Shown here piece after piece: positions 11,655-52,771 of a DNA stretch of 64,000 nt. The notes beneath the pieces were generated by a model that was not told the origin of the DNA, searched no databases, and was given only the letters and a program-made list of their open reading frames with translations. Origin of the DNA: an uncultured Bacteroidota bacterium (lineage in GTDB: Bacteria; CLD3; SB21); NCBI GenBank assembly GCA_964544475.1, contig CAZJBS010000007.1:43741-107740 (forward strand), in the 5' to 3' direction. A program made the translations under genes and the position numbers. Positions within the stretch are counted from its first letter, which is position 1, and each line of letters opens with the position of its first letter.

Positions 11655-11658
11655 GGCC

Positions 11659-13107: not shown

Positions 13108-13131
13108 GGCCCAAAATGCAAAGTTTAGAAG

Positions 13132-15991: not shown

Positions 15992-16001
15992 GGCGTACCT
16001 G

Positions 16002-21146: not shown

Positions 21147-21156
21147 GGTGAGGCCT

Positions 21157-22152: not shown

Positions 22153-22384
22153 GGTCGTTGTTCCGCGACCAATAGGAGCAATACCCGTACCGAATAGATG
22201 TGTCTGAAAATCAATCAGTTACGAATAGAAGGAGTCCATCTGCTTATGGCGGAAAAGGACTAAATAAGTGAATATTGCCATACAGAGGGAATTTCACGAA
22301 ACGAAGGTCTGGAAAGGGAGTGACAGAGGGCAGAAACGATGAACACGGTCGGTCCGTCGTGATGCTTGCAATCAAAAAGAATGG

Positions 22385-22897
22385 CTATCTCATGTTCCGC
22401 AGTAGCACCGTTCGATCCACCGAATACGCATAGCCCCGGTAGCTCACAGAAAATACATAGCGCACCCTGGCGATCTGGCTCGTCGGCGAGGCACTGGTCC
22501 ATGCCGTGCCATCCCACTTGTAATAGGAGAATACAAAACCCGAGACTCCCGACGCCAGTACATCGTTGTTACGCAAGATTCGTTGGGCGCTGTACTGGAG
22601 ATCGATGGCGGCATCGGCGTTGTTCGTCAGCTTGAATCGAGTGGACGTGGCGATGAGAATGCTGGTTCTGTTCTTCACGCTTTTGGCTTCGCGCTCGAGC
22701 ACATCCGCCGCCCGTTGCGCGTCCTGGACGGCGACGGATGAACGCAAAACATCCGCGTAGATGTCCGTGGAGGTATTGAAAGACAAATACACACCTGTCA
22801 TGATGACCCCGGACAATGTCGCATAGAGCATGAGCTCTATGAGCGTGAATCCCCGTTCATCATCCATGGCATCTTTTTTAGAAAAGTGGCGTTTCAT
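22385..22897 (-). CDS. Type IV minor pilin (prepilin-type N-terminus)
   Basis: N-terminus ...DERG|FTLIELMLYATLSGVIMTGV with Glu at +5 after the putative cleavage Gly. The leader is atypical: either 24 aa, or acidic (MDDERG) if it starts at ATG 22867. Confidence 0.7.
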   Translation of the reverse strand: MKRHFSKKDAMDDERGFTLIELMLYATLSGVIMTGVYLSFNTSTDIYADVLRSSVAVQDAQRAADVLEREAKSVKNRTSILIATSTRFKLTNNADAAIDLQYSAQRILRNNDVLASGVSGFVFSYYKWDGTAWTSASPTSQIARVRYVFSVSYRGYAYSVDRTVLLRNMR

Positions 22898-22901
22898 GGG
22901 A

Positions 22902-23285
22902 TCAACTCTGCGTCAGCCATGTGACGATCTGTACCGCCGAAATCAAATCATGGGACACTCGGACCGTCACCTCGGCATAGGCCACTCCGGAAAATGTCTT
23001 TCCGGCGGTCACAATGGTAGTGGTTCGCGTGTATCCGCCGGCCAGATTCTCCGCGGCATAACGCCCGGGCGTTGTAACCCACGAGTAGCCCCGGCTCGGG
23101 GACATCTTGTCGGCGGTAATGTCCTCCAATTTCTGTTCACATAGCGCCAGAGCCCTGGATTCGATTTCATACGTTGCGCTGTGCAGAAAGGTATAGCTGT
23201 ACAAATCCACCAGGGCGGGCACGGTAATGCCGACAAACAACAGCGTCGTGATGATCTCCAGCGTGGAATAACCTTTTTCATTCAT
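22902..23285 (-). CDS. Type IV minor pilin (PilV-like)
   Basis: An internal ATG at 23285 gives MNEKG|YSTLEIITTLLFVGITV (Gly-1, Glu+5). The track ORF extends to 23360 and overlaps pilC. Confidence 0.65.
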   Translation of the reverse strand: MNEKGYSTLEIITTLLFVGITVPALVDLYSYTFLHSATYEIESRALALCEQKLEDITADKMSPSRGYSWVTTPGRYAAENLAGGYTRTTTIVTAGKTFSGVAYAEVTVRVSHDLISAVQIVTWLTQS

Positions 23286-23301
23286 GATCGTCGCCCCGCT
23301 T

Positions 23302-24513
23302 TTAGTGTTTACCCATGTGGCCCAACATGTCCCACATCGGCATGAATATCGCCAACGCAATGAAGAGTATCGCGCCGCCCAGCAAAACGGTAATCATCGG
23401 CTCGATCAAGGTGGTCAGATTCTTGACCGTGTGATCGACCTCTTCGTCGTAGTATTCGGCAATATTGGTCATCATCGTGTCGAGCGAGCCGGATTTTTCG
23501 CCGATCGCAATCATTTGCACGACGATGGCCGGAAAGATCCGGCTCTTGCGCAATGGCTGGGCCAGACCCTGGCCGTCCTTCACACCATTGAGCGCCCGGT
23601 AAACTTCATCCGTCACGACGCTGTTCCCGATGGTTTGCGCGATGATGGTCAGGGTCTGGATGATCGGCAACCCGCTGCGATTGAGAGTCTCAAACGTTTT
23701 CGAAAACCGCGACAGATACGTCTTGACATTCAACTCACCGAAAACCGGAAGGTGCAGTTTGCGTTCGTCCCACCATCGGCGTCCTCTCGGCGTCCTCATG
23801 AAATAGCGCAGGCCGATCAGCAAGGCCACCGCCGCCGGTATGACGATCATCCAGTACTGCGTGATCGCCGTATTGATCCCGATCAGAATCTGGGTCGGCA
23901 GGGGCAGGTCAACTTTCATTCGTTTGAAAATGTCAACGAATTTGGGCACGACCATGACAATCAGAACGACAAACGCAATCAGGATGCCGAAAAGGACCAT
24001 GATGGGATAACGCGTGGCTTTTTTGATGTTTTGGCGGATTTCCATATCGTGGGACAGAAAAGAAACCAGCCGCAAGAGCACTTCATCCAGTACGCCGCCG
24101 GTTTCACCCACCTTGATCATGCTGACATACAGATCCGAAAAGGCCTCCTTATGGGGTTTCAAGGCGTCGCACAGGGGTTTGCCGCTTTGAATGTCGCCGC
24201 TGACCTTCTTCAGGATGACCCGCATCGATTCCGAGGCCGCCTGCTCCTCCAGCGCCTGGAGACAGCCCAATAAGGGTACGCCCGCCTTGAACAGCGTCGC
24301 AAACTGTTTCGTGAATACGATGACTTCCTTGGGATCGATTTTCTTCTTGGAAAAGGCGCCGGCGAAGAGGCCGGGCCGGACTTCGGAGATTTGAAGTGGA
24401 AGGTAATTCAGACGATCCAGATACTCGGTGACAAATCCGATGTTCGGCGCTTCGATTTTGTCGACGACGACCTGCCCGGTGTGGTTGATGGCGCGGAACT
24501 GAAAATGGGACAT
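23302..24513 (-). CDS. pilC: Type IV pilus inner-membrane platform protein PilC (GspF family)
   Basis: ATG at 24513 is preceded by AAGGAG (ggattaaaggagacgccATG). It contains two GspF-type repeats and three TM segments; its sequence is typical of PilC. Confidence 0.9.
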   Translation of the reverse strand: MSHFQFRAINHTGQVVVDKIEAPNIGFVTEYLDRLNYLPLQISEVRPGLFAGAFSKKKIDPKEVIVFTKQFATLFKAGVPLLGCLQALEEQAASESMRVILKKVSGDIQSGKPLCDALKPHKEAFSDLYVSMIKVGETGGVLDEVLLRLVSFLSHDMEIRQNIKKATRYPIMVLFGILIAFVVLIVMVVPKFVDIFKRMKVDLPLPTQILIGINTAITQYWMIVIPAAVALLIGLRYFMRTPRGRRWWDERKLHLPVFGELNVKTYLSRFSKTFETLNRSGLPIIQTLTIIAQTIGNSVVTDEVYRALNGVKDGQGLAQPLRKSRIFPAIVVQMIAIGEKSGSLDTMMTNIAEYYDEEVDHTVKNLTTLIEPMITVLLGGAILFIALAIFMPMWDMLGHMGKH

Positions 24514-24523
24514 GGCGTCTCCT

Positions 24524-26227
24524 TTAATCCTGGGTGACCCGGACGACTTCTTCAATGGACGTCAGTCCCTGAAGAACCTTCGCCACGCCGTCCTGGCGGA
24601 GGGTGCGCATGCCGTTTTCGATGGCCGCGTCTTTGAGACGGCTGGAAGAAGCGCGGGTCATCGTCAGTTCTTTGATCTCCTCATTGACAATGAGCAGTTC
24701 GTAGATGGCCAGCCGGCCGCGGTAGCCCTTGTCGTGGCAAGCCGGACAGCCCGCCGGTTTATGAAAAGTATACGAACGGCCGTTCTGCAAATTGAGCGAC
24801 TTGACCATCGCGTCATTTGGCGCATAGGGTTGCCGGCATTTTGGGCACAACCTCCTCACCAGTCTCTGAGCCAGTACACCGGAAAGGGCCGAGGCCGTCA
24901 GAAACGGCTCGATGCCCATGTCGGTCAGCCGGTTGATGGCGCTCGGGGCATCGTTGGTGTGGAGCGTTGAAAAAACCAAATGGCCGGTTAAAGCCGACTC
25001 CACGGCGATGTGCGCCGTTTCCTGGTCCCGGATTTCACCCACCATGATCACATCGGGATCCTGCCGCAGGATGGACCTCAGACCTGTCGCAAATGACAGC
25101 CCGATTTTGGCATTGATCTGGCATTGGCGGATCGTGTCCAGCCGGTATTCAATGGGATCTTCAACGGTGATAATGTTCTTGTCGATGGAGTTGATCGAAC
25201 TCAACGCCGAGTAGAGCGTCGTGGTTTTTCCGCTGCCGGTCGGGCCCGTGACCAGAATGATGCCGTTGGGACGGCGGATCAGTTGTTCAAAAAACACAAA
25301 CGTGTTCCTGTCAAATCCGAGTTCCTGAAGACTGACGGTCACAGAGCCTTTATCCAGAATCCTCAGCACAATATTCTCCCCATTGATCGTCGGAAACGAA
25401 GAAATACGGAAATCGATCGTTCGCGAACCGATGCGGGTTTGAAACCGGCCATCCTGGGGCAGCCGTTTTTCGGCAATGTCCAGTCCGGACATGATCTTGA
25501 ACCTTGAAATCAGCGCCGACTGCAGATGCTTGTCCAGAACGAATGATTCCTTCATGAGGCCGTCCACACGGAACCTCACCAGCAGGTTCCTTTCTTCCGG
25601 CTCAATATGAATATCACTGGCCCCTTCGCGGACTGCCGCTGCCACGATCACGTTGGACAACCGGATGATCGGGGTGTCCTTCGCCGCTTCTTCCAACTGT
25701 TCCCGGCTTTCCGTCACTTCCTCGACCGTGATCATTTCGACGTCCGCCTGGTAATCCAACACCGCGTCGCGAACTTCGTCCTGATAGGCTTGTGAGGAAT
25801 TCTTGAAAATCCGGCTCAGCGTGTCCTGCAAATCCTGTTCGGAACACAGCATGGGTGAAATGGTCAAACCGGTCAATGACTGAAGTTCGTCAATCACCGC
25901 CAGGTTGCGCGGATCGACCATCGCCACGGTCAATTCGTCTCCAATTTTGAATAACGGAAGCAACTGTTTGGATCGCAGGACGTTTTCGGGCACGAGTTGG
26001 ACCACATCCATGTCGATTTCGAAGGTCGTCAAATCGACCGTCGGCAAATCCAGATGATCCGACAGAATCTGGAGCAGGTCTTCATCTTTTACGAGGCGCT
26101 TTTCCGAAATGATCTTCCCGAGTTTCTTGCCGTTCTTCAGCTGGTGGCTTAGAATTTCCGACAGTTGGCTTTCCGTCACCAGGTTGTTGCTGACCAGCAA
26201 TTGGCCCAATTTGGGATGGACGGGCAC
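24524..26227 (-). CDS. pilB: Type IV pilus assembly ATPase PilB (GspE family)
   Basis: 567 aa with a GspII_E N-terminal domain, Walker A GPTGSGKTTT, and a tetracysteine motif CPKC...CPAC. Confidence 0.9.
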   Translation of the reverse strand: MPVHPKLGQLLVSNNLVTESQLSEILSHQLKNGKKLGKIISEKRLVKDEDLLQILSDHLDLPTVDLTTFEIDMDVVQLVPENVLRSKQLLPLFKIGDELTVAMVDPRNLAVIDELQSLTGLTISPMLCSEQDLQDTLSRIFKNSSQAYQDEVRDAVLDYQADVEMITVEEVTESREQLEEAAKDTPIIRLSNVIVAAAVREGASDIHIEPEERNLLVRFRVDGLMKESFVLDKHLQSALISRFKIMSGLDIAEKRLPQDGRFQTRIGSRTIDFRISSFPTINGENIVLRILDKGSVTVSLQELGFDRNTFVFFEQLIRRPNGIILVTGPTGSGKTTTLYSALSSINSIDKNIITVEDPIEYRLDTIRQCQINAKIGLSFATGLRSILRQDPDVIMVGEIRDQETAHIAVESALTGHLVFSTLHTNDAPSAINRLTDMGIEPFLTASALSGVLAQRLVRRLCPKCRQPYAPNDAMVKSLNLQNGRSYTFHKPAGCPACHDKGYRGRLAIYELLIVNEEIKELTMTRASSSRLKDAAIENGMRTLRQDGVAKVLQGLTSIEEVVRVTQD

Positions 26228-26238
26228 GGGCGGTCGTC

Positions 26239-26667
26239 CTAAACGACCTGCGCCATCGGCGGATACATGCTGGCGACAGGCCGGCCCGCAGGGCGTTTCC
26301 CGGCGATCAGGCTGCCGATCTTGTCCAGGAGTTCCGGCGGATCGTAGGGTTTGTGCATATACGCATCGGCCCCCATTTCCATTCCGGTATGCCGGTCGAT
26401 GTCACGGGCCCGCGAGGTAAGCATGATGATGGGAATGTGGCGGCGCTTTTCGTCCGACTTCAGGAGCCGGCATATTTTGAAACCGTCCATTTTGGGCAAC
26501 AAGACGTCCAGCAGAATGAGGTCCGGACTTTCTGTGCGCGCCTTGAAAAGCCCGTCCAGGCCGTCCGCGCTGGACAGAACCTCATAACCCTCGGACTGCA
26601 AACGCATGGTCAGTACGCGCACGAGATTGGGATAATCATCCACAATCAGTATTCTGGGAATCGGCAT
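26239..26667 (-). CDS. Single-domain response regulator (CheY-like)
   Basis: Begins MPIPRILIVDDYPNLVRVL. Contains LILLDVLLPKMDG and HKPY. It overlaps the upstream kinase by 32 nt. Confidence 0.8.
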   Translation of the reverse strand: MPIPRILIVDDYPNLVRVLTMRLQSEGYEVLSSADGLDGLFKARTESPDLILLDVLLPKMDGFKICRLLKSDEKRRHIPIIMLTSRARDIDRHTGMEMGADAYMHKPYDPPELLDKIGSLIAGKRPAGRPVASMYPPMAQVV

Positions 26668-27868
26668 GATGACGCACCTTTCGTCGTTTTGGAAGAAAAA
26701 TTGTAAATGTACTGCCCCGGCCGTACTCGGATCTCACTTTGATCCGTCCATGATGAAGTCGCACCATTTCCTTCACGATGCTCAAACCCAGGCCGCTGCC
26801 TTTGTCCCGATTGTGGACATGTTCGGCATGATCCAGTTGGGAAAAACGCTTGAACAACTTCCGGATGTCCGATTTCAACATGCCAAAGCCCTCGTCCCGG
26901 ACGGACAATTCGAGGCCGCCGTGTTGCGGCGTGGCCGTGATTTCGATCGTCGTGGATGGCGGCGAATATTTGATGGCATTGTCAAGCAGATTGAACAGCA
27001 TTTGTTTTACGCGATCGGCATCGGCATACAGGTTGTCAATCGCCATCGGAATATTTTCACACAGCGTTATGCGCTTGTTTTTCGCTTTTCTCTCAACCGA
27101 CGTCATTGCCGACCGCACAAGCAGGTGGACGTCGATCCGGGTACGATGCAGACGCGTCTGGCCGGCATCCAGCCGGTTGATTTCCAGCAGATCGCCCACC
27201 AGGCGCGACAGACGATTCGTTTCGTCAAAGGCCACCTGGAGACATTGGCGTTGGGTCGGATTGATGGCGCCGATTCTCTCTTCCAGCATCAGGGACAGGC
27301 TCTCTTTGACCGGCGCCAGCGGATTGAATAATTCATGCGTGACCACGGACAGGAACTCGGATCGTTCACGGGCTTCCGTCCACGACGCGCTGACGTCGCG
27401 AATCAGGAACACGTGACCGATCCGCGTACCGTCCGGATGGCGGATGGCTTTGACGGTGATGTCATAGACAAAGAACGGCCGGCCGGAAACAACCTGATCA
27501 CGAAGTACCGACGGGTGGCGTTGCCGGGCTTTGAGAAGAAGTGGTTCCAGATTGAGCCGGGCGCCGGAAGCGAGTTGCCGCACGGTCGTGATTTCCGGAC
27601 GCGCGTCATCTTCGATCCGAAGCAGTCTGACGGCCCTGGGATTGATGATTCGAACCCGGTCAAGAAGATCGACCAGGACAATACCGGTATCCAGGTGATC
27701 GATGACGGCTGTCGTTTCGGTATGGCATTGACGAATGAGCAGATCATCCATCCGGCTTTCGATCGGAAACCTCCCGTCGGCCGAGGCGTTCGCGGTCAGG
27801 GACTCCGTGCCATGGTTATTCTTGACCGTGACGGGGTTGGGAATCAGTCGTAGTGCGCCGGTCATCAT
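26636..27868 (-). CDS. PAS sensor histidine kinase (HisKA + HATPase_c)
   Basis: H-box FLSVVTHELFNPL. HATPase N-box reads NLLDNAIKYS. G-box motifs are DEGFGM and GSGLGLSIV. Its start lies 10 nt downstream of the pilD stop. Confidence 0.8.
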   Translation of the reverse strand: MMTGALRLIPNPVTVKNNHGTESLTANASADGRFPIESRMDDLLIRQCHTETTAVIDHLDTGIVLVDLLDRVRIINPRAVRLLRIEDDARPEITTVRQLASGARLNLEPLLLKARQRHPSVLRDQVVSGRPFFVYDITVKAIRHPDGTRIGHVFLIRDVSASWTEARERSEFLSVVTHELFNPLAPVKESLSLMLEERIGAINPTQRQCLQVAFDETNRLSRLVGDLLEINRLDAGQTRLHRTRIDVHLLVRSAMTSVERKAKNKRITLCENIPMAIDNLYADADRVKQMLFNLLDNAIKYSPPSTTIEITATPQHGGLELSVRDEGFGMLKSDIRKLFKRFSQLDHAEHVHNRDKGSGLGLSIVKEMVRLHHGRIKVRSEYGRGSTFTIFLPKRRKVRHHADSQNTDCG

Positions 27869-27878
27869 GATCTCCCGG

Positions 27879-28655
27879 TTATCTGTTTACCACGTTGTCC
27901 AAATACCATTGGATAAGGTCCGCTCCAAAGAGAAGACTTCCCATCATGGCCATCGCAAAAAAAGGCGCCATTGGAATTTCCGCCCGGCGATCCAATTTCC
28001 TGAACAGAACGCCGATCCATCCCGCCACCGAAATGAAGAGAAACGTCAGAAACAGGACCATCGCCAGAAGTTTCCAGCCCAGGAAGAGGCCCAGTAAGGC
28101 TGTGAGTTTGATGTCGCCGCCGCCCATGGCGTCTCTCTTATACACGCGACGGCCGACCAATGCGATCCCGGTCATGATGGCGCCCCCCATGACCATACCG
28201 GCCATACCGGCCACCAGAGATGAAACGCCTTCGAGTATCAGGAATCCCACGCCGATCGGCAGGCTGATCAAAAGAAGCCGGTTCGGGATGATATGGCTCC
28301 TGTAATCGATTTCTGACAGGACGATCATCAATAAGGTCAGATAAGCCGATTTGAAAAACAGGATCGTCCACCCAAACTGGCTGTGCAGGAAAACCAGGCA
28401 TAGCGCCGTTGCCAACTCGACCGCCGGATAACGGATAGAAATTTTCTGGCGGCAGGACCCGCAGCGGCCGCCCAGGATCGCGTATCCCCACAATGGGATA
28501 TTGTGGTACCACCGGATCGGTGAACCACAATGCGGGCAATGGGAAGCCGGAAACCACAGCGATTGTCTGAGCGGAATGCGATGAATCACGACGTTCAGAA
28601 AACTGCCCAATAGCAGTCCGGCCGCGGCAATGAGCAAGTCAGGCGACAGACTCAT
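27879..28655 (-). CDS. pilD: Prepilin peptidase PilD (A24 family)
   Basis: Polytopic protein with the zinc-binding CPHCGSPI...CGSCRQ pair. Catalytic Asp contexts are present, including GGGDIKL. Confidence 0.9.
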   Translation of the reverse strand: MSLSPDLLIAAAGLLLGSFLNVVIHRIPLRQSLWFPASHCPHCGSPIRWYHNIPLWGYAILGGRCGSCRQKISIRYPAVELATALCLVFLHSQFGWTILFFKSAYLTLLMIVLSEIDYRSHIIPNRLLLISLPIGVGFLILEGVSSLVAGMAGMVMGGAIMTGIALVGRRVYKRDAMGGGDIKLTALLGLFLGWKLLAMVLFLTFLFISVAGWIGVLFRKLDRRAEIPMAPFFAMAMMGSLLFGADLIQWYLDNVVNR

Positions 28656-29520
28656 AATGGGCGTCCTGGGTTAGCGTGACAAATTGAGATGAGTTTTCCC
28701 TGTAAATACGTTCGATACCAAACGTCGCCTGGAACATGGCCACGTCGAGATTGACGTTTTTCACGCTGAGCAGAGTCAGGATCAATGTGTTTTGAGCCAC
28801 GACCATTTTGTGCGACACCGCCTGCAACGGAAGATCGAAATAAACGGATCCGTTCGCCGATCCGCTCTTGGCATAACGTTCAAGATGCCGGTAGAAGAAT
28901 TTTGCAAACTCCGAATGTTCGCCGCCCCCGGATTGTTCCAGATCCGACAGCGCGGCCACCGGAAGACCGTCCCCCGTGGTAACCACCGCGGCAAACAATC
29001 CGAACTTACGAATGATATTCTGAAGATAGTGTTCAAGCGCCTTGTCCTGCTCCTCCGTCCGACGGCTGCGTCGGTCGAACAGGGAGATCATGCTGCGAAT
29101 CTGTTCGCGCAACTTCTGGCTGGCGCACATCGGATTGGAATGGACACAATAGTTGGCCCGGCAGGCCGTCACCGGCTCACTGCACATCTGGCGCCGATGG
29201 TAATTGGCCGTGGGTTCCATGCGGCTCGTAATAAATTCACGAGCCAACTTACGGTGAAGTGTGTTTTCGGCAAAATCTATGGCCTCGTGCCAAAGGAAAA
29301 TCTGGAGTTCCATCAATTGTTCGACCGTCATCCCCGTCATGATGGAGTCAATGAAATGAGGGTCGGAAATATTCTTTCGGATCTTTTTCAAAAGGTCCCG
29401 GCTGAGCGTGCCCTGCACGAATGATGTCTTGAATTCGGTCAAGGACGCTTCCTTACCGGCCATAGATTCCATATTCAGACTTTGATTAGTCTGGCGGTCG
29501 GTATCTCTCAAGTCGAACAT
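28639..29520 (-). CDS. Hypothetical protein; C-terminal ~110 aa possibly Roadblock/LC7 (MglB-like) fold
   Basis: 293 aa. It contains a Cys cluster CSEPVTACRANYCVHSNPMC. The C-terminal region LFAAVVTTGDGLPVAALSD ... VYFDLPLQAVSHKMVVAQNTLILTLLSV ... has a beta-alpha-beta-beta-alpha pattern reminiscent of Roadblock domains; this was judged by eye only. It overlaps the pilD start by 17 nt. Confidence 0.45.
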   Translation of the reverse strand: MFDLRDTDRQTNQSLNMESMAGKEASLTEFKTSFVQGTLSRDLLKKIRKNISDPHFIDSIMTGMTVEQLMELQIFLWHEAIDFAENTLHRKLAREFITSRMEPTANYHRRQMCSEPVTACRANYCVHSNPMCASQKLREQIRSMISLFDRRSRRTEEQDKALEHYLQNIIRKFGLFAAVVTTGDGLPVAALSDLEQSGGGEHSEFAKFFYRHLERYAKSGSANGSVYFDLPLQAVSHKMVVAQNTLILTLLSVKNVNLDVAMFQATFGIERIYRENSSQFVTLTQDAHYESVA

Positions 29521-29543
29521 GGGAACTCCTCGTTAAGGGTGAC

Positions 29544-29575
29544 CAGGCTCCCATACCATACCGGATGGGAGCCTG
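29544..29575 (-). terminator. Strong hairpin (11-bp stem) 15 nt downstream of pilA stop, no T-run
   Basis: On the minus strand the sequence reads caggctcccat-ccggtatggt-atgggagcctg. It is a candidate attenuator or partial terminator between pilA and downstream genes. Confidence 0.4.
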
Positions 29576-29589
29576 AGTCTTGATGGAAA

Positions 29590-29931
29590 TTAGTGGCCAG
29601 AGACAGAACACGAGACCGTGCCCGTCGTCGAAGAATACGTGTACGTGCCACCGGACGGACACGTGGGATGCGCACCGCTCGCAAAGAGCGTGTCCATGGC
29701 GCTCAGACTTGCCGGAAACGTGGCCGGGCCGCCGGCCAAAGCCGACTGGGCGTAAAATACGCTGGCCGCTGCGCCAATCGCACCCTGATTGGACTTGCAG
29801 GCGCCGGCTTCCGCCTGATCCGTCAAATCGAAATACTTCGGCACCGCGACGGCGGCGAGAATACCCAGGATCACGATGACCGTGACCAACTCCATCAGGG
29901 TGAAGCCTTTTTCATTTTTCATGGATTTCAT
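29590..29931 (-). CDS. pilA: Type IVa major pilin PilA
   Basis: ATG at 29931 is preceded by GGAGGAAG. It gives MKSMKNEKG|FTLMELVTVIVILGILAAVAVPKYFDLT (class III signal peptide, Phe+1, Glu+5). A C-terminal Cys pair is present. The track ORF is extended upstream to 29988. Confidence 0.85.
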   Translation of the reverse strand: MKSMKNEKGFTLMELVTVIVILGILAAVAVPKYFDLTDQAEAGACKSNQGAIGAAASVFYAQSALAGGPATFPASLSAMDTLFASGAHPTCPSGGTYTYSSTTGTVSCSVSGH

Positions 29932-29980
29932 TTTTCTTCCTCCAAAGAGATTAAGAGTTTGATTCGTTGGCCTACTCTCC

Positions 29981-29996
29981 ATCAACATCCGTGCCG
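29981..29996 (-). promoter_or_regulatory. Candidate sigma54 (-24/-12) promoter element upstream of pilA (imperfect)
   Basis: On the minus strand the sequence reads cGGCACGgatgTTGAt, against the consensus TGGCACG-N4-TTGCW. The -24 GG is present, but the -12 GC is replaced by GA. It lies ~55 nt upstream of the pilA ATG, and a PilR-like sigma54 activator is encoded in the same cluster. Confidence 0.3.
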
Positions 29997-30095
29997 TCGT
30001 TTGATATTTTGTTTAATAACGACTTGAACGACACATCCGGTGGCAGGGGTTGTGGGAAAAAATGCCCAACAGAGGAAATTCGACCCCATTTTTTG

Positions 30096-30132
30096 GCAAT
30101 AAAAAAGGCCGGAACACCTTCGCATTCCGGCC
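30096..30132 (-). terminator. Rho-independent terminator downstream of ssb
   Basis: On the minus strand, a hairpin ggccggaa-tgcgaaggtg-ttccggcc (8-bp stem) is followed by TTTTTTATT. Because it has A-run/T-run flanks it may be bidirectional. Confidence 0.6.
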
Positions 30133-30168
30133 TCTGGTTGGTCCTTCCTTCAGGACCGTGGGTGAAGA

Positions 30169-30513
30169 TCAGTCTTTTTTCCGTTCAAGAATCTGCATCT
30201 TGTCGGCCACGACTTCCGTCACAAACCGTTTCACGCCATCGCCGTCTGTGTAAGACCGCGTCTTCAACTGGCCTTCCACCGACACGAGCGAACCTTTCTT
30301 CAGGTATTGACCGCAGATTTCGGCAAGCTTGCGCCAGGCCACCACACGGTGCCAGTCGGTTTGTTCGACCTTGTCGCCTTCCTTGTTCTTGAAAACCTGA
30401 TTCGTCGCGAGCGAGAACAGGCTTATCGGAATACCATTCGGCGTGTACCGCATCTGCGGTTCTTTTCCAACACGTCCGATAATGACGGCTTTGTTGAGGG
30501 TTCCTTTGGACAT
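30169..30513 (-). CDS. ssb: Single-stranded DNA-binding protein, short tail-less form (OB fold only)
   Basis: 114 aa beginning MSKGTLNKAVIIGRVGKEPQMRYTPNGIPISLFSLATN. It ends ...VVADKMQILERKKD right after the OB fold, with no Gly/Pro-rich linker and no acidic DDDIPF-type tip. Confidence 0.85.
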   Translation of the reverse strand: MSKGTLNKAVIIGRVGKEPQMRYTPNGIPISLFSLATNQVFKNKEGDKVEQTDWHRVVAWRKLAEICGQYLKKGSLVSVEGQLKTRSYTDGDGVKRFVTEVVADKMQILERKKD

Positions 30514-30769
30514 GGTTGTCTCCTTTGAATAATGATGTTAGTACTATTAATAAATGATATGGTTTGTTCGCGTTTTCGTTTGTCCTGACCCTATTAATCT
30601 AACCATGCCAAAGCCTCATTTTTTCTCAAAAATTGAGAATAATTGGCGCCGCAAATCGAAGGCCTTCCGTCAAGGCCCTCTTGCTTCCCTCAAATAAAAT
30701 CTTCACATTGGCCCACCCGCAGAACGCGGTCTTGCAGAATGATCCACAACCTAAGCACCTGGGAGAACT

Positions 30770-32794
30770 GTGATGCTTTACCGGAGTTTGATACTGGCGG
30801 CGCTCGTTTTGGCGGGATGCCAGCCATCGGCAAAAAACGGCCCCGATCCGCTGGCCGACAATAGAGACACGACCGTCAGCCCACGCAAGGATTTCTTTCT
30901 CCACGCCAATGGCGGTTGGTTCAAGAAGCACCCCATTCCGGAATCCGAATACATGAACGGCCTTTGGCTCACCATACTGGAGGACACACGTAAGTCCGTT
31001 CGCGAAATCTGCGAAACTTCCGCGGCAGACACGACAGCCAAACCCGGTTCCAACCGCCAAAAAATCGGTGATTTTTTTGCCAGCGGCATGGACAGCGCCG
31101 GCGCCGAATCCGCCGGCCTGACGCCGATTCAGGAACTACTTGACGAGATCGATGCGATGAAATCAAAAGAAGACCTGGCCCGTGTGGCCGGCCGTTTGCA
31201 CCGCGGCATGGCCGGATCTCTTTTCTCCATGCACGTGGGCAAGGATGACAAGAAGCCGGGCGCCTACGCGATCCTCCTCAACCAGGGCGGCCTGGGTCTC
31301 CCCGACCGGGACTATTACTTCAAGACGGATTCCAGAAGCGTAACCATCCGGCAGGAGTACGTGAAACATCTGGAATTCACCGCCTCCGCATTCAAAAGCC
31401 AAACGCCGGTCGCAGACGCCAAAACGATCCTGTCGCTGGAAACCGCGTTGGCCAAATCCAGCCGCGTACTGGAAGCCCTGCGCGATCCGTATGCCAATTA
31501 CAACAAGCTGAGCGCGTCGGAACTGCAGAAACTCACGCCGGATTTTTCATGGCCCGTATTTTTTGAAACCGTTGGCCTGAAGAACGTCGATTCCGTCGTC
31601 GTCGGCCAGCCGGAGTTTTTCGCCGCCATGCAACGCGCCCTGACCTCCACGCCGATGGCCTCATGGAAAGCCTATTTCAAATGGTGCCTGCTGGCGGAGT
31701 ACTCGGCGTATCTGACCGAAAATCTCGCCGTGGCCGATTTCAATTTCTTCGCGAAGACGATCCGCGGTATCGAACAGCGCAAACCACGATGGAAACGCGT
31801 CGTCGAAAAGACCAACCGTTCTTTGGGAGAATTGGTCGGACAGGAGTATGTCGCCCACCATGTGCCCAAAGGCGCCAAGGAAAAACTGCTCGAAATCGGC
31901 AACACCATCCGTGACGTCTGCCAGGAACGCATCCACGCGATTTCGTGGATGGGCGACTCCACACGGGCCAAGGCGTTGAAGAAACTGGAAACGATGGTCA
32001 TGAAGGTCGGATACCCCGACCGGTGGAAGGACTATTCGGACCTGACCATCGATCGCGGGCCGTACGCCGCCAACGTCCTTCGCGCGCACCAATGGGCCTT
32101 TGCCGACATGATCCGCAAATGGGGCAAACCGGTCGACCGATTGGAATGGGCCATGACGCCCCAGACCTACAACGCGTATTACGATCCGAATAACAACGAG
32201 ATCGTTGTGCCGGCCGCCAATATCATCGTGCCGGGTTTTGAAAAGGAACTGCCGGATGATGCGATTTTGTACGGCATCATCGGAGGCGGCACGTTTGGGC
32301 ACGAAATCATCCACGGTTTCGACGACATGGGCAGTCAGTACGACGAGACCGGCCGACTCGCCATGTGGTGGACCACGGAGGATCGCGAGCGCTTCACCGC
32401 CAAAACAAAATTGCTGGTCGATCAATGCGACAACTATGTCGTCCTCGATAGTCTCCACCTGCGGGGACAGGCCACCCTCGGCGAGAATATCGCCGACCTG
32501 GGCGGCGTGCAACTCGGCTACGACGCCTTCAAACGCACGGCTCAATTCAAATCCGGAAAAAGGATAGCCGGTCTGACCCCCAACGAACGCTTCTTCCTGG
32601 CCTACGCCTACGGGTGGATGATCCAGATGCGGCCGGAATCCCTCGCAGACCAGATCATGACCGATTTCCACGCGCCCGCCCAGTTCCGCGTCAATGGCCC
32701 GTTTTCCAATGTCCCGGAATTCTATGAGACCTTTCATGTCGTGCCGGGAGACGCCATGTACCGTCCGGACAGCCTGCGCGTCAGCATCTGGTAG
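30770..32794 (+). CDS. M13-family zinc metalloendopeptidase (PepO/neprilysin-like), lipoprotein
   Basis: Lipobox LVLAGC. The zinc-binding motif is HEIIHGFD (HExxH). The GENIADLGG (ENxADxGG) motif is present. GGAG lies upstream of the ATG. Confidence 0.9.
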   Translation: MMLYRSLILAALVLAGCQPSAKNGPDPLADNRDTTVSPRKDFFLHANGGWFKKHPIPESEYMNGLWLTILEDTRKSVREICETSAADTTAKPGSNRQKIGDFFASGMDSAGAESAGLTPIQELLDEIDAMKSKEDLARVAGRLHRGMAGSLFSMHVGKDDKKPGAYAILLNQGGLGLPDRDYYFKTDSRSVTIRQEYVKHLEFTASAFKSQTPVADAKTILSLETALAKSSRVLEALRDPYANYNKLSASELQKLTPDFSWPVFFETVGLKNVDSVVVGQPEFFAAMQRALTSTPMASWKAYFKWCLLAEYSAYLTENLAVADFNFFAKTIRGIEQRKPRWKRVVEKTNRSLGELVGQEYVAHHVPKGAKEKLLEIGNTIRDVCQERIHAISWMGDSTRAKALKKLETMVMKVGYPDRWKDYSDLTIDRGPYAANVLRAHQWAFADMIRKWGKPVDRLEWAMTPQTYNAYYDPNNNEIVVPAANIIVPGFEKELPDDAILYGIIGGGTFGHEIIHGFDDMGSQYDETGRLAMWWTTEDRERFTAKTKLLVDQCDNYVVLDSLHLRGQATLGENIADLGGVQLGYDAFKRTAQFKSGKRIAGLTPNERFFLAYAYGWMIQMRPESLADQIMTDFHAPAQFRVNGPFSNVPEFYETFHVVPGDAMYRPDSLRVSIW

Positions 32795-32818: not shown

Positions 32819-33673
32819 ATGGCCACACGCATAGACGAACTCCACCGCCAGATCGAAATGGCGGCTTTGATCGCGGAATTCCCGGAAAAGTATTCGGAGG
32901 ACGATCTCGCGGCCCATTTTTTCACGAGTGTGAGTTCGATCCGCCGCGACGTCAAAGCCCTGCGCGAAATGGGCGTCGAAGTGCGTTCGCGAAAACTGTC
33001 CTACCGCATCGACCTTTCCGTCGACGATCTCAATCGGCTGGTCACCACCTATTGGGCCTTCGGCAACCACGAGCGCATCAAAAACCTGCCGCTCATCCGG
33101 AACAAGCTGAAAAACCGGACGTTGATGTTCTTTGTGCAAACGATGAAAGCCATGCAGGAAAGAAAAGTCATGGAGATCGATTACCGTTCCGGCAAAAAGG
33201 AAACATCGCGGTGGCGGACCCTAACGCCCGTCGCTTTCTACAATGGCGGTAAAACCCATTACCTTATCGCGATGCACGACACGGTGCCGAAAATGTTCAC
33301 GATCGAACGCATCCTCGACTTCCGATTCCCCAACCAACCTTCACCGCTGAAGGAAATTCCATCGCTGTCCGACCTGTTCCGGCACGCGTGGGGCTCCTAC
33401 ACCGGCGGCGCGTTGGCCACCGTGCGTTTGAGATTCCGCGATGATCTCGAACAGTACATGTCCGAAAAATTCTGGGTCGAAAACCAGGAAATGAAACACA
33501 CGGAGGATGGGTTTGAAGTGACCCTGAAAATACGGCTATCCAATGAATTCGTCGCCTGGGTGATGGGCTGGGGCGATGCGGTGACGATTCTGGATCCGAA
33601 GGAATTGCGGGACGCGGTCGTAAGGAAGGCTTCCGACATCGTCGCCCGGTACAGGAAGGGAAAAAAATCCTGA
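32819..33673 (+). CDS. WYL-domain transcriptional regulator (HTH + WYL)
   Basis: 284 aa with an N-terminal HTH-like region followed by a WYL-type segment (PVAFYNGGKTHYLIAMHD). Confidence 0.7.
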   Translation: MATRIDELHRQIEMAALIAEFPEKYSEDDLAAHFFTSVSSIRRDVKALREMGVEVRSRKLSYRIDLSVDDLNRLVTTYWAFGNHERIKNLPLIRNKLKNRTLMFFVQTMKAMQERKVMEIDYRSGKKETSRWRTLTPVAFYNGGKTHYLIAMHDTVPKMFTIERILDFRFPNQPSPLKEIPSLSDLFRHAWGSYTGGALATVRLRFRDDLEQYMSEKFWVENQEMKHTEDGFEVTLKIRLSNEFVAWVMGWGDAVTILDPKELRDAVVRKASDIVARYRKGKKS

Positions 33674-34320: not shown

Positions 34321-34377
34321 AGGTTTTTTTTGACTGTAAATACGATAATTGCATCTTATTATGCTCGGAGAAATTCT

Positions 34378-35715
34378 ATGGCTAAGCACGCGCTATGTCT
34401 CGCCTTACTCATGACAGCCCTCATACTGGGTTGTTCCGAAGACAAAAAAGATGACCCCGATGGTAACCCCGACATCGCATCCTGCGAAGGCTGTCATACC
34501 GACTACGAGACACTCAAGGCAATTGCCGCCGAAGACACCATAAGCGGCGGAGGAGGATGTGGTGGAGATGCGCCCCACATCGAGCGATATGACCGCGTAT
34601 ATCTTGGAGGCGCCGGATACACGGCATTCAAGAACTCGACTCACGGTGGAATGACATGCGTTCAGTGCCACAATGGCACGGATGAGACTTCGGACAAAGC
34701 GGTGGCCCATTCGGGTGATTTCATCAGCCACCCGTCCACGTTTGCGCAGGACAAGTGCGGCAGTTGCCACAACACCATGGTGACGATGGCAAACAACAGT
34801 CTGCACCAGCAGGGATGGGGTCAGAAGAGAATGGTGTTCCTCCGGGCCGGATTGAGCTCATTCGATGCGCTGTCTGAAACGATGAAAGCGGGATACCAGA
34901 CGAACTGCGCCAAATGCCACGCCGGTTGCGGCGATTGTCACGTCATGCGGCCAAAAGCCGGTGGCGGCGGACTCTACAAAGGCCATCAATTCACGTCCCC
35001 CGACATGCGAGATCAATGCGTGGCATGCCATTCCAGCCGTGGAGGTCATGCGTATTTTGGTATTGGAACGGGAACGGTTCCGGACGTCCACTACTCAAGC
35101 CAGCATATGGAATGTCTGGACTGCCATACCGGGGCCGAAGTGCACGGCAATGGACAGGTGCAAAATACCCGGTGGCAGATGCCCGGCCTGCCTTCCTGTA
35201 CCAACTGCCACACCGATGTGGCCACGTCCAATGCGTATCATACGGAACACATCGGAACCTTCAGTTGCAACACATGCCATTCGCAGAACTACAACAACTG
35301 CGGCAGCTGCCACATCGGGGGCGAAGGCGCGCGTGTCGTCTCTCATCAGAGTTTCAAAATCGGCATGAATCCGATCAGGGACATCAAACCGCCATACAAG
35401 TTCGCGCTCCTGCGCAGATCGCTGAGTGCGCCGGACAGCTGGGAACTCTATGGAACGTCGTCGCTGGGCAATTTCGGCGTGGCGCCAACGTACAAGTATA
35501 CCACGCCGCACAACATTCTACGCTGGACCACCCGTACGCAGGTTGGAAGCGGCAAACCATGTTACGACAATTGCCACATCATTTTCGAAAACAACACGTA
35601 TCGCAACCGCAATCTGTTCTTGTTCAATTCCGATTTACTGGAGACGTGGGAACTCAGCGCCGATACCGGCATCGTCGTGGACGGCAGACTTCCGTCCGGC
35701 TGGGGTACACCGTAA
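34378..35715 (+). CDS. Multihaem c-type cytochrome lipoprotein (10 CxxCH + 1 CxxxCH)
   Basis: ATG at 34378 has GGAG upstream. Lipobox LILGCSE. Haem motifs are CEGCH, CVQCH, CGSCH, CAKCH-AG-CGDCH (back to back), CVACH, CLDCH, CTNCH, CNTCH, CGSCH, plus CYDNCH (CX3CH) at 35560-35577. Confidence 0.85.
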   Translation: MAKHALCLALLMTALILGCSEDKKDDPDGNPDIASCEGCHTDYETLKAIAAEDTISGGGGCGGDAPHIERYDRVYLGGAGYTAFKNSTHGGMTCVQCHNGTDETSDKAVAHSGDFISHPSTFAQDKCGSCHNTMVTMANNSLHQQGWGQKRMVFLRAGLSSFDALSETMKAGYQTNCAKCHAGCGDCHVMRPKAGGGGLYKGHQFTSPDMRDQCVACHSSRGGHAYFGIGTGTVPDVHYSSQHMECLDCHTGAEVHGNGQVQNTRWQMPGLPSCTNCHTDVATSNAYHTEHIGTFSCNTCHSQNYNNCGSCHIGGEGARVVSHQSFKIGMNPIRDIKPPYKFALLRRSLSAPDSWELYGTSSLGNFGVAPTYKYTTPHNILRWTTRTQVGSGKPCYDNCHIIFENNTYRNRNLFLFNSDLLETWELSADTGIVVDGRLPSGWGTP

Positions 35716-35752
35716 CTCCGACACATCCACTTAACCGTTTGAAGGAGACTGT

Positions 35753-36754
35753 ATGAAGAACTGGAAGCACATGATGGCCTTGCTGGTCATTCCATTGATG
35801 CTTGGATTTGTCGCCTGCAGCGACGACGATGACAAGGCGGCCATTAATGAAGCCGACGTGTTGTTGAAGTACCTCGAGGCCAATGGGAATTACATCAACA
35901 CGTCCGCGCCGTCGATTGCACCCGCCTCGGAGGTCCGGACCAATCAGGGTTCTGCATCCTATTATATCATCGACATCCGGAGTTCCACGGACTTCGCCAA
36001 CGGTCATATCGAAGGGGCTCACAATGTGACGATGGCCAATCTGCGCAGCCACTATGTCGCCAACAACGGGCCGTCCTTCACAAAGGTGTACGTTGTTTGT
36101 TATTCCGGCCAGTCGGCGGCCTACGGGGCGTCCCTGCTGCGTCTGCTCGGTTACAGCAACGTGTATTCGATGAAGTGGGGCATGAGTTCATGGGATTCGA
36201 CCTTCGCACAAAACTACTGGCTGACAAAACGCAGCAACGTGCGGGCAACTCAGTTCGACACGATTACCTATCCGAAGCCGGCCGCCGGAGAACTTCCCGT
36301 TCTCAACACCGGTTTGAGCGACGGTGCGTCCATCCTGTCGGATCGCGTGGATACTTTGCTTTCTTATGGGTTCACACCGGCCAATATCACCGAAGCAACG
36401 GTGTTTGCGAATCTGAGCAACTACTATGTTGTCAACTACTGGCTGACGTCGCAATACTATGATCCGGGCCACATTCCCGGCGCCGTGAATTATGTCCCCA
36501 AAGCGGACCTGAAGGACTCGACGTACATCCGGACGCTGCCGACGGATCAACCGGTTGTCGTGTATTGCTACACCGGCCAAACCAGCGCTTTTGTATCGGC
36601 ATACCTGAGACTGCTGGGCTATGACGCCCGCTCCCTGTCCTTTGGAGCCAACGCCATGATCTACGACCTCATTCTGGGTCGTGCGGGTTTCACGACCTTC
36701 GTGCCGGGAACTGACATCATGCAGTACCCCTGGGTCACGGGCGCGGCAAACTGA
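35753..36754 (+). CDS. Tandem rhodanese-domain lipoprotein (two catalytic Cys loops)
   Basis: Lipobox LGFVACSDD. The two rhodanese active-site loops are CYSGQSAAY and CYTGQTSAF. Confidence 0.8.
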   Translation: MKNWKHMMALLVIPLMLGFVACSDDDDKAAINEADVLLKYLEANGNYINTSAPSIAPASEVRTNQGSASYYIIDIRSSTDFANGHIEGAHNVTMANLRSHYVANNGPSFTKVYVVCYSGQSAAYGASLLRLLGYSNVYSMKWGMSSWDSTFAQNYWLTKRSNVRATQFDTITYPKPAAGELPVLNTGLSDGASILSDRVDTLLSYGFTPANITEATVFANLSNYYVVNYWLTSQYYDPGHIPGAVNYVPKADLKDSTYIRTLPTDQPVVVYCYTGQTSAFVSAYLRLLGYDARSLSFGANAMIYDLILGRAGFTTFVPGTDIMQYPWVTGAAN

Positions 36755-37788: not shown

Positions 37789-40700
37789 TTACGCCACCAC
37801 TTTGGTTTCCAGTTTCGGGACGACCGCCGGCGCCGGCATCCTCCCGTTACGGCGTCCATACACCCTCCGAAACAACGCCGGCACTTTGACGCTCCACTCG
37901 TCGATCTTGGAATAAACGACAGGCACCAGGAGCAGCGTGAGAAACATCGAACTCGTCAGACCTCCGATCAAAGCCCACGCCAGGCCGGTTTTCCATTCCG
38001 AACCCGCCGCCGTGGACATGGCAATCGGCATCATGCCGATGATCATCGTAAGCGTGGTCATGAGAATCGGCCGCAGACGGCTTTTGCCGGCCTCCATCAA
38101 CGCCTCCCGCGTTCCCAGGCCGGATTCCGATTTGTTCTGGTTCGTGCGGTCCACCAGCAGGATGGCGTTCTTCCCGACAAGTCCAACGAGCATGATGATG
38201 CCCAGCATGGAAAAAATGCTCAGCGATTTCATCGTCAGCGCCATGGCGAGCAGCGCGCCCACCATTGCCACGGGAATGGAAAACATGACTACGAGCGGAT
38301 AAATGTACGAATCATACAACGCCACCATGATCATATATACGAAAATGATGCCGGCCAGGAGCGCCAGCCCGAGGCTTCCAAAGGAATCTTTCTGATTTTT
38401 CAAATCGCCCATATAGGCGAGCGAAACGCCCCTGGGCAGCGGATTCTCTTTGATGGTCTTTTCGAAATCCTGAGCGATGCTCCCGCTCGGGCGGCCCACG
38501 GCCTGCGACAAGACGGTGATCGACGTATTGCGGTCCCGCCGTTGAAGCTTGCTCGGTCCGGTCACTTTTTGGATCGTGGCAAATTGCTGCAACTCGATCG
38601 CCTGCCCGCGCCGGTTGAGGAAAGTGAGCCGGCCAATCTCGCCGGTTTTGGACCGGTCAAGTTCATCCATCACCACACGGATGTCGTACTCGTTTTCGCC
38701 GTCCCGGAATTTCGATTCGTTGTCGCCGGTCAAAGCGACACGCAGCGTGGCCCCGACCTCGGCCATCGTCAGTCCGAAAGCGGCCATCTTCTGCCGGTCG
38801 ATATCGACGCGCGTTTCGGGCTTCCCGTCCTCCGACGACAGACGCACGTCCCCGGTGCCCGGGATGGCATGCAGCATATCCACGATGCGATGCGCCGAGG
38901 CCAACACCAACGCCCGGTCGGAACCGCTCACCGCAATCTGGATCGGGGTCTGGTTGGCCGTGCCGAAAATGCCGATCGGATTCGCGCGCACTTTGACGCC
39001 GGGGATCTGCTGGACTTTTTGTTTGATCTCCCATTGCATGTCGTCCGTCGATTTCACGCGTTCCTCTTTTGGCACAAGCGTCACATTGATCTCGGCGACG
39101 TTGTTGGAGTTTTGACCCAGCAATCCTTCGTTGGAAGCGCCGACGTTGACAAAAGCCATATGGACTTCCGGCATCGCAAACAGCATACGCTCGACGTCCT
39201 GCGTCGTATAGTTCGTCTGCTCAATGGAGGCGCCCGGGGGCAGTTCGATGGTGACCGCAAATTCCCCGCGATCCGATTGCGCCACAAACTCCGAGCCGAT
39301 GAATCCCAGCGGCACGAGCGACAACGAAGCAAAAAACAACGCCAGGGTCATCAGGGCCACCTTGCCGCGGTTGGCCAGGCTCCAGCGCAACAAGGAAAGA
39401 TAGTGCGTCGTGAACCGGTCATACCACGATTCGAACCACAACGCAAACCGGCCCATCAGCGTGTCCTTCGTGAACAGTTCGATCTTCGCAAACCGGGACG
39501 CCAGCATCGGTGTGATGGTGAAAGACACAAACAGGCTGAGCAGGGTCGATACGACGACCACGACGGAAAACTGGCGCAGGATATTGCCGATCAGGCCGCT
39601 CGTAAGGGCCAATGGCACAAACACCACCACATCCACGAGTGTGATCGAAAGGGCCGCAAACCCGATTTCGTTACGGCCGATCAACGCAGCCTTGCGCCGC
39701 TCGACACCCTTTTCAAGATGATGGTAAATATTCTCCAGCACAACGATGGAATCATCGACGAGAATGCCGACGACCAGGGACAACCCCAGCAACGTCATCA
39801 GATTGAGTGAGAAATCGAACAGGTACATCGCAATGAATGTGGAGATCAACGAAGCCGGGATCGCGATCATCACAATGACCGAGTTGCGCAGGCTGTGCAA
39901 AAAGAGGAACATCACCACGGCCACGAGCAGGACGGCCAGGGCGAGATCATACTTGACCGCGTTCGCGGCATCGACCGTGAATTGCGAAATATCCTGGGCA
40001 AGCTCCATCTGCAGCCGGATATCCTTGTGCTCGTCCTGCAACTTCACAATCTCGGCCCGGACCAGTTTGCTGACCGCCACCGCATTGGCGTCGGACTGTT
40101 TCTGCACGTAAATACCGATCGACGTCTTGCCGTTGATGCGGCTGATATTGACGTAATCCCTCTGTCCGTCCTGCACTTCGGCCACGTCGGAAAGCCGAAT
40201 GTCCCCCCCGGTTTTGGAGCGCCCGAGCACCAGGTCGCGCAGGTCGTCGACGGAATGGAATTTTCCGGCCACGCGTACGACATACTGGCCGTCCTCGTCT
40301 TTGATGTTGCCGGTCGGAAAGTCCAGGTTCGACGCCTTGATGATCTCGGTGACCTGCAGGACGGACAACCCGTACCCGCGCAGTCTGGCCGCATCCAGGT
40401 TGACTCTGATTTCACGTTCATCGCCCCCGATCAACGTGACCTGACCGACGCCGGGCAACTTGGACAAACGTGGCTTGACATTGTCTTTCATGAACTGGTA
40501 GAACTCACGGGCCGGCATCGTCGACGTGGCGCCCAGCCGAACAACCGGAATTTCATCAAGGGCAAATTTCGAAATGGCCGGCGCCTTGACGTCGGCGGGA
40601 AATTTCCCTGTGATTTCACCGATTTTGCGCTGGGCATTCTGCAGGGCGACATCCACGTCGGCCCCCTGGTTGAATTCGATGAAGGCAAAGGAAACGCCTT

Positions 40701-40956: not shown

Positions 40957-40971
40957 GGGATCATCCTTTGA

Positions 40972-42021: not shown

Positions 42022-42048
42022 CGGTTGCGTCTCCTCGAGTGAAAGGGT

Positions 42049-43380: not shown

Positions 43381-43396
43381 TGTTAGCTCCTGTGAA

Positions 43397-48630: not shown

Positions 48631-48632
48631 GC

Positions 48633-48953: not shown

Positions 48954-48955
48954 GG

Positions 48956-51974: not shown

Positions 51975-51984
51975 GATGGGCTCC

Positions 51985-52737: not shown

Positions 52738-52771
52738 GAATGCCTCTGTTTGTTTTTCTTTGGTCCGTCGT

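Follow-up and report, generated by a model that had tools for sequence, protein, structure and literature searches.

SsbB of Bacillus subtilis (YwpH; PDB 3VDY) is a competence-induced paralogue of the single-stranded DNA-binding protein (SSB) that has no C-terminal tail. The gene studied here, designated ssbA, resides in a 64-kb stretch of contig CAZJBS010000007.1 from an uncultured Bacteroidota bacterium (the whole stretch is referred to as the window). Its product resembles SsbB, a protein of approximately 113 amino acids (aa), in several respects: it is of the same size class, consists of the oligonucleotide/oligosaccharide-binding (OB) fold only, carries no acidic tip and very probably represents a second copy beside a full-length SSB. 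The initial annotation had taken the missing tail as the hallmark of competence-type SSBs and the type IV pilin gene next to ssbA as a sign of a role in transformation.

Two further groups of described systems concern the control of such genes. Regulators composed of winged helix-turn-helix (wHTH), WYL and WCX domains bind palindromes of 20-30 bp in bidirectional promoters and act as activators or repressors responding to single-stranded DNA (ssDNA) (PMC11662680). Among these, the ssDNA-activated DriD recognizes a 20-bp palindrome that occurs at didA, at recA and at the promoter of its own gene (PMC9186387). DriD of Caulobacter and PafBC of mycobacteria represent LexA-independent damage regulons. 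Furthermore, non-canonical LexA proteins of Bacteroidetes, built of an XRE helix-turn-helix and an S24 peptidase, recognize SOS boxes such as CTAA-N5-TTAG and GGA-N5-TCC, and both recA and ssb belong to their regulons (PMC8565304). Based on comparative analyses of the window and related loci, ssbA is considered here to encode, with fair though not high probability, an inducible, partner-blind ssDNA coater belonging to a box-controlled ssb/recA regulon that would be governed by a DriD-like WYL regulator. The elements of the ssbA locus are as follows:

30104-30135, minus strand: intrinsic terminator of ssbA (14-bp stem with 7 G-C pairs, 4-nt loop, T-run)
30169-30513, minus strand: ssbA, OB-fold-only SSB of 114 aa (Pfam, TIGR00621, homologue alignment)
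30594-30601, minus strand: TAnATTrA box TAGATTAA, putative -7/-10 element of ssbA, 30 nt 3' of the palindrome centre
30617-30645, no strand assigned: 29-bp palindrome (the ssb/recA box), core TCAATTTTTGA at 30626-30636 (position weight matrix, conservation across loci)
30770-32794, plus strand: M13-family peptidase (Pfam), divergent from ssbA and ending 24 nt 5' of the WYL gene
32819-33673, plus strand: wHTH-WYL-WCX regulator, candidate box binder (Pfam HTH_11, WYL, WCX)

Within the ssbA product, the SSB profile PF00436 was matched over its full length (positions 1-104 of 104, residues 6-109; E-value 2.9e-39, 133.7 bits, cut-off 26). TIGR00621 likewise scored above its cut-off (143.3 bits, cut-off 53.95), with a match limited to positions 3-110 of its 165, which means that linker and tip are absent. 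The protein ends with VVADKMQILERKKD, that is, its stop codon follows five residues after the conserved MQ(M/I)L motif (MQILERKKD at the end), and the relatives extend 25-40 residues further to a terminal DDLPF. This also applies to the nearest homologues (65-75% identity), which comprise 140-152 aa. Neither the D-D-[DI]-[IL]-P-F tip nor the disordered linker was found in the ssbA product, and the initial statement that this SSB stops after the OB fold is thus borne out. Concerning taxonomy, the closest relatives all originate from uncultured Bacteroidota metagenome-assembled genomes, the top match among GTDB representative genomes being 72% identical, with the window's own species missing from that set.

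In E. coli SSB, residues W40, W54, F60 and W88 provide aromatic stacking on ssDNA, and H55 is located at the tetramer interface. The ssbA product shares 46% identity with this protein (BLASTP), and the alignment places F41, W54, H55, W60 and Y88 at the positions of E. coli W40, W54, H55, F60 and W88. Residues predicted to serve ssDNA binding and tetramer formation are accordingly kept, and the protein is classified from its sequence as an OB protein of the SSB family, though not as a canonical SSB that recruits partners. PriB (primosomal replication protein N), another short tail-less OB-fold derivative of SSB, was also considered. This identity was rejected, with 28.5 bits for TIGR04418 (cut-off 72); in contrast to PriB, the ssbA product retains the complete SSB signature along with the mentioned similarity to E. 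coli SSB, and no rpsF-priB-rpsR context is present.

Phages commonly carry SSB genes. An origin of ssbA from a phage or another mobile element, whose SSBs are in many cases tail-less or tail-altered, had to be weighed, and 68 viral contigs indeed encode relatives. However, the best viral identity amounts to 56%, compared to 72-95% for chromosomal relatives, and ssbA nests in a chromosomal clade with conserved synteny. Moreover, G+C content and tetranucleotide composition are uniform across the window segments, no PADLOC match was obtained, and no integrase or phage-gene domain occurred among the Pfam matches of the scanned open reading frames (ORFs) of the window, the scan covering most ORFs of at least 150 aa. 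With viral identities not exceeding 56%, a phage origin was rejected as very improbable.

The nearest tailed relatives are just about 30 aa longer than the ssbA product, which would fit ssbA being a duplicate in decay or a normal ssb cut short by sequencing or assembly. Several results contradict this. The identical 114-aa protein was recovered from 57 blocks of independent Logan assemblies with unchanged gene order. In the sister lineage (L100), the ssb gene is 81% identical to ssbA at the nucleotide level and 95% at the amino-acid level, ends at the same stop codon and carries its own terminator consisting of a hairpin and a T-run, analogous to that of the window. Recurrence in 57 blocks and the shared stop codon imply that the truncation is no assembly artefact, an explanation the initial annotation had reserved and which is hereby excluded. 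Furthermore, the ratio of nonsynonymous to synonymous substitution rates (dN/dS) between the two genes is 0.018 with saturated dS, indicating purifying selection on ssbA at the sequence level. A search of all three frames 3' of the stop codon revealed no tail remnant, and the terminator begins only 34 nt beyond the stop. Taken together, decay or truncation of a normal ssb is effectively refuted. In an Rfam scan of positions 29400-30900, all matches remained below the gathering score, and two of the three overlapped the terminator hairpin.

Neither a second ssb nor recA was found within the 64-kb window (tblastn). However, four contigs (L096-L099) encode a 152-aa SSB (P0054) ending with DDDLPF, located 23 nt 3' of recA, and lack an ssb 5' of recA, which makes them the exact complement of the window. 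Their tetranucleotide composition correlates with that of the window at r=0.975, equalling the self-consistency of the window (0.975-0.978), whereas the best unrelated locus reached 0.907; G+C contents are 0.553 and 0.550, respectively. Among the samples shown, DRR774208 is common to L096-L099 and the contigs carrying the window's ssb, and another sample stems from an adjacent run accession. Runs rich in the organism include SRR36604290, SRR24576372, SRR34646270 and DRR774208. P0054 is present in 67 blocks, compared to 57 for the 114-aa SSB. Composition and co-occurrence thus suggest that L096-L099 belong to the organism of the window. Accordingly, the full-length second ssb that the initial annotation had proposed to look for very probably exists, and ssbA is, from these sequence data, very probably a paralogue and not the sole ssb. 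In the sister lineage, a third ssb (P0008, on L102) was identified, which is tipped and box-controlled. P0002 (75% identical) possibly corresponds to it in the organism of the window.

A palindrome upstream of ssbA connects the gene to a regulon. Upstream of first ssb copies it takes the form TTTT(Y)N-CTCAAATTTTGAG-N(R)AAAA. In the window, its core lies 113-123 nt 5' of the ssbA start codon and approximately 125 nt 5' of the start of the divergent M13 peptidase gene. The box is single-copy in the window: the position weight matrix (PWM) score is 40.3, the next best site reaching 12.1, which is within the range of shuffled sequences. For comparison, loci totalling 1.6 Mb were fetched, including about 70 loci from other phyla. 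In these, the box occurs in this lineage only, and there only 82-131 nt 5' of ssb or 5' of recA (L096, L021); it precedes all first ssb copies in related loci. A PWM scan throughout the pilus cluster of the window detected no box at pilus genes. Upstream regions of about 18 loci, when aligned, show a similar TAnnTT-type box at roughly equal distance 3' of the palindrome; the TAnATTrA box of the window is a putative promoter element of ssbA. Box variants with CTCA or GTCA differ even among very closely related genomes. At two loci lacking ssbA in front of recA, the box is placed directly 5' of recA (L096, 8541-8569; L021, 4631-4659). Where ssbA, recA and ssbB are contiguous, the box is found at ssbA only, pointing to joint control of the three genes as one unit.

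The neighbourhood of the ssb loci of this lineage was surveyed by tblastn or by means of called genes. A conserved layout emerged, in which a WYL regulator gene, at times accompanied by an M13 peptidase gene, diverges from an ssb-recA-ssb series. This series was detected in nine genomes (L005, L013, L015, L016, L017, L018, L019, L022, L024), each with both ssb copies on one contig, and the downstream copy is a canonical, tipped SSB in all of them. In a neighbour-joining tree, the window SSB falls into the clade of first copies, apart from the canonical clade downstream of recA. The WYL gene adjoins the box-proximal ssb at nine of the 13 loci featuring an upstream flank of at least 3 kb, and in the sister lineage (L100) it is directly divergent from the 114-aa ssb. 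Among the searched or gene-called ssb loci of the lineage, pilus genes were encountered nowhere except in the window's species and its sister. As judged from gene order, the constant partner of ssbA is the WYL regulator. The tandem of M13 and WYL genes, which are probably co-transcribed, also accompanies the ssbA orthologue in L013, L018 and L024 (58-60% identity). Here, a peptidase of secreted type thus accompanies a regulator of DNA-damage type.

The regulator encoded next to the box was compared to solved structures. The WYL protein matched solely five constructs, all through the same DriD alignment (E-value about 1e-7), among them 7U02 and 7TZV, which represent DriD (PMC9186387). According to the phmmer alignment, with an E-value of only about 1e-7, the DriD residues Y168, R176, R178, Y192, R204, R207 and Y240, which contact ssDNA, correspond to Y122, R131, R133, Y148, K158, T161 and Y194 of the window protein; five of the seven are identical, one is conservatively exchanged and one differs. 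The window thus shares with the DriD and PafBC systems a wHTH-WYL-WCX regulator, for which DriD is the closest solved relative, and a palindromic operator in the regulator's divergent promoter as well as upstream of recA. It differs in that it belongs to another phylum, its operator sequence is unrelated and the adjacent targets are mainly ssb paralogues, which number two to three per genome and are often tip-less. Considering adjacency, domain architecture and regulon content, the WYL protein represents the best candidate for the box-binding factor. In a PADLOC search, the WYL, SSB and M13 proteins yielded generic WYL models only and no defence system.

Alternatively, the same damage-inducible set of ssb and recA genes may be controlled by a distantly encoded non-canonical LexA for which the palindrome would be the SOS box, with the WYL protein acting on another target, e.g., the M13 peptidase gene. 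The core CTCA-AATTT-TGAG is a 4-N5-4 dyad with AT-rich spacer, resembling CTAA-N5-TTAG and the experimentally bound sequence TTAC-AAATT-GTAA (PMC8565304), and the overall arrangement of dyad, spacer and dyad with recA and ssb as members is common to both systems. Furthermore, four boxed ssb loci, as well as the recA locus, are without a nearby WYL gene. On the other hand, wherever the WYL gene is present (nine loci), the box is situated in the promoter region from which this gene or its operon diverges. Such a placement is typical of a local regulator subject to autoregulation. Moreover, the half-site CTCA/TGAG differs from those of the described LexA boxes, and the palindrome is longer, reaching 25-29 bp, as is the case for wHTH-WYL-WCX dimers. 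An XRE-S24 gene was seen in no fetched flank, though no systematic search was made for it, and DriD itself recognizes a palindrome at recA (PMC9186387). Control by LexA is thus regarded as an unlikely, albeit serious, alternative to the DriD-like WYL regulator, and under either of them the regulon belongs to the DNA-damage and recombination type.

The missing tail has to be viewed in the context of the whole lineage. All 11 recA-linked SSBs have kept the DDLPF tip, whereas 13 of the 19 box-proximal SSBs have lost it, with independent losses of the complete tail in L026 (116 aa) and L011 (121 aa). Pilus genes are associated with none of these latter cases. Since tip loss recurs at box-controlled ssb loci without linkage to pilus genes, the missing tail is not diagnostic of competence in this group, contrary to its initial interpretation as a hallmark. 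Several relatives (L008/L020, L011, L022, L026, L021, L025, L102) possess two to three ssb genes per genome, each of them boxed or recA-linked. In L008 (L008/L020, 10001-13811), two tip-less SSB genes flank an Endonuclease_NS gene, and in L011 (10001-12244) the WYL gene is flanked by one tipped and one tip-less ssb.

The pilus genes of the window were analyzed with regard to their relation to ssbA and comprise the following elements:

29981-29996, minus strand: sigma54-like -24/-12 element of the pilin gene, CGGCACGGATGTTGAT (CGGCACG-N4-TTGA), two mismatches to the consensus, position kept in the sister lineage
29590-29931, minus strand: type IV pilin of 113 aa with class III signal peptide (N_methyl motif, Logan gene call, orthologue in the sister lineage)
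10380-29520, minus strand: remaining type IV pilus cluster with prepilin peptidase, PilB, PilC, minor pilins, PilM-like protein, PilO, secretin and PilT; further genes therein encode GGDEF and AAA_22 ATPase proteins, a sigma54 response regulator and histidine kinases

The neighbouring gene indeed encodes a type IV pilin with the leader MKSMKNEKG|FTLMELV. Its start is most likely the ATG at 29931 rather than the one at 29988, resulting in a gap of 237 nt between ssb and pilin genes, and the designation as major pilin, adopted initially, follows from the position in the cluster. The terminator and the sigma54-like element reported between the two genes both proved real. Matches to the sigma54 consensus are not enriched across the window (10 matches, 11 expected), and the pilin element is not significant by itself; it was retained as real because its position is conserved in the sister lineage, where it likewise lies at -64/-65 from the pilin ATG. 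As compared by eye without alignment, the rest of the intergenic region is unlike between the two lineages. Positions 11659-13107 code for a sigma54 enhancer-binding response regulator. Moreover, a second sigma54-like site (CGGTACGGGTATTGCT, 22177-22192, minus strand) is located within the pilus cluster, 25 nt 5' of a 331-aa ORF (21157-22152), suggesting that the cluster has at least two sigma54 promoters.

Further observations concern the composition of the cluster. In its 16553-20785 section (minus strand), a GGDEF diguanylate cyclase gene (19337-20785), an AAA_22 ATPase gene (18507-19340) and a gene for a 653-aa protein with a PilM-like domain constitute an unusual accessory set for a type IV pilus locus. 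Between the pilin and prepilin peptidase genes, a 293-aa ORF (28639-29520, minus strand) has neither a Pfam nor an NCBIfam match. In the sister lineage (L100, 12626-13498), a 290-aa gene without Pfam match occupies the same position.

With these elements at hand, the proposal that ssbA is an analogue of competence-type SsbB, protecting ssDNA imported via the adjacent pilus, was evaluated. It is favoured by the tail-less build, the status as second copy and a complete type IV pilus cluster including the PilT retraction ATPase and the secretin, which is found within 0.24 kb of ssbA in the window and within 1.9 kb of ssb in the sister lineage. However, the genes constitute separate transcription units, ssbA featuring its own terminator, box and promoter and the pilin gene its own sigma54-like promoter. 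A glucose-6-phosphate dehydrogenase gene of opposite orientation separates the ssb and pilin genes in the sister lineage, and the contact is hence a loose one even in this pair of lineages, the only ones to have it. Orthologues in about ten genomes are accompanied by the WYL gene, recA and ssbB and never by pilus genes, and the box is common to recA and ssb loci and missing from the pilus cluster. Accordingly, the pilin gene is a neighbour of the ssb module and stands outside it, and the juxtaposition does not carry the inferred role in transformation.

Sequence comparisons point in the same direction. NF005242 (112 positions) and NF005579 (131 positions), taken by their length as the B. subtilis and streptococcal SsbB types, scored 87 bits each against cut-offs of 189 and 169, respectively. 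Membership in the Firmicutes SsbB equivalogs was rejected, both cut-offs having been missed. The comparison to SsbB itself (3VDY) gave 82.8 bits, less than the 100-109 bits obtained for the housekeeping proteins SsbA and E. coli SSB. Domains of comEA, comEC and dprA, the homologues of which would have been expected from the initial proposal, were not found in the 64 kb by the Pfam scan of most ORFs of at least 150 aa. In contrast to SsbB, of which it is not a specific sequence relative, the window SSB arose independently inside a Bacteroidota clade, and its gene is linked by its operator to recA and ssb and by its position to the WYL regulator, with no link to pilus genes or a competence regulon. 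By analogy, the ssbA product may nevertheless work like SsbB in coating ssDNA without recruiting partners. The competence-type explanation as a whole is quite improbable. A role in transformation retains a slim chance because tail loss and arrival beside the pilus cluster share one branch. The pilin-adjacent position looks like a local rearrangement and not like a link to DNA uptake; a secondary use of the SSB buffer for pilus-imported DNA is possible in the window's lineage.

Returning to the box-controlled ssb/recA regulon, the following course of events is proposed, in which the box-binding protein, the direction of regulation, the inducing signal and the biochemical effect of the tail loss are inferred from the observed anatomy, paralogy, selection, synteny and box distribution. 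The product, termed SSB-A, would come from the first ssb copy, a dispensable one, in a lineage-specific ssb/recA regulon of an uncultured Bacteroidota group. Ancestrally, the WYL regulator gene, with or without the M13 peptidase gene, would have been transcribed away from the palindromic box, and ssbA, recA and ssbB (canonical, with DDLPF) in the opposite direction. This module presumably split in the common ancestor of the window's organism and the sister lineage: ssbA would have stayed with the WYL regulator gene and come to adjoin the type IV pilus cluster, recA-ssbB would have moved elsewhere carrying a copy of the box, and the entire C-terminal tail of SSB-A would have been lost in the same ancestor.

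In this scheme, the box would overlap the ssbA promoter at its -35 region and be bound by a dimeric regulator, most likely the adjacent DriD-like WYL protein sensing ssDNA through its WYL domain. Upon ssDNA build-up, e.g., after DNA damage or under replication stress, ssbA and recA-ssbB would rise together. The tail-less product would still form an OB-fold tetramer and coat ssDNA and would be unable to recruit proteins binding the SSB tip, and it may thus serve as a protective ssDNA buffer alongside RecA and the full-length SSB. A bolder version is put forward only tentatively and is considered rather doubtful: in a LexA-independent ssDNA-sensing circuit, a DriD-like WYL protein would control a small regulon consisting almost wholly of SSB paralogues (two to three per genome) and recA, and the ssDNA-induced tail-less or tip-less first SSB, serving as a feedback element, would then sequester ssDNA without repair partners, both protecting the DNA and switching the WYL sensor off.

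Several points weigh against the proposed regulon and its assignment to the WYL protein. Tail loss and arrival beside the pilus cluster map to one ancestral branch, which leaves some chance of a secondary link to DNA uptake. No genome assembly underlies the placement of L096 in the same genome, which was deduced from composition and co-occurrence. It is by its adjacent position that the WYL protein was connected with the box, and box-proximal ssb loci of L016, L022, L023 and L102 have no WYL gene in the fetched flank. In the WYL protein, DriD R204 is conservatively replaced (K158) and R207 is replaced by T161. Finally, another regulator is possible, as the 4-N5-4 dyad shape of the box is shared with the non-canonical LexA SOS boxes of Bacteroidetes (PMC8565304).

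Further gene clusters of the window are unrelated to ssbA. These include a multihaem cytochrome c gene (34330-35715) beside a rhodanese gene (34330-36754 in total), an RND efflux system with a TetR regulator (37789-44041) and an Rrf2 regulator gene together with a SUF iron-sulphur cluster operon (48172-54217).

A missing tail and a neighbouring pilin gene are not sufficient to call a competence-type SsbB; shared operator and comparative synteny point instead to a role in recombination or the response to DNA damage. Tail-less SSB paralogues and WYL-type damage regulons are both of known kinds, and what distinguishes the present case is a regulon dominated by multiple SSB copies. Results obtained in this study describe a conserved regulon of a poorly known Bacteroidota lineage, comprising a WYL regulator, a 29-bp palindrome, several ssb genes and recA. 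It would extend WYL-type control of the DNA-damage response beyond Actinobacteria, Alphaproteobacteria and Moraxellaceae, since the literature searched contained no case from Bacteroidota. Moreover, the tip has been lost repeatedly in one SSB paralogue and never in the other, providing a natural experiment on the need for the SSB tail.

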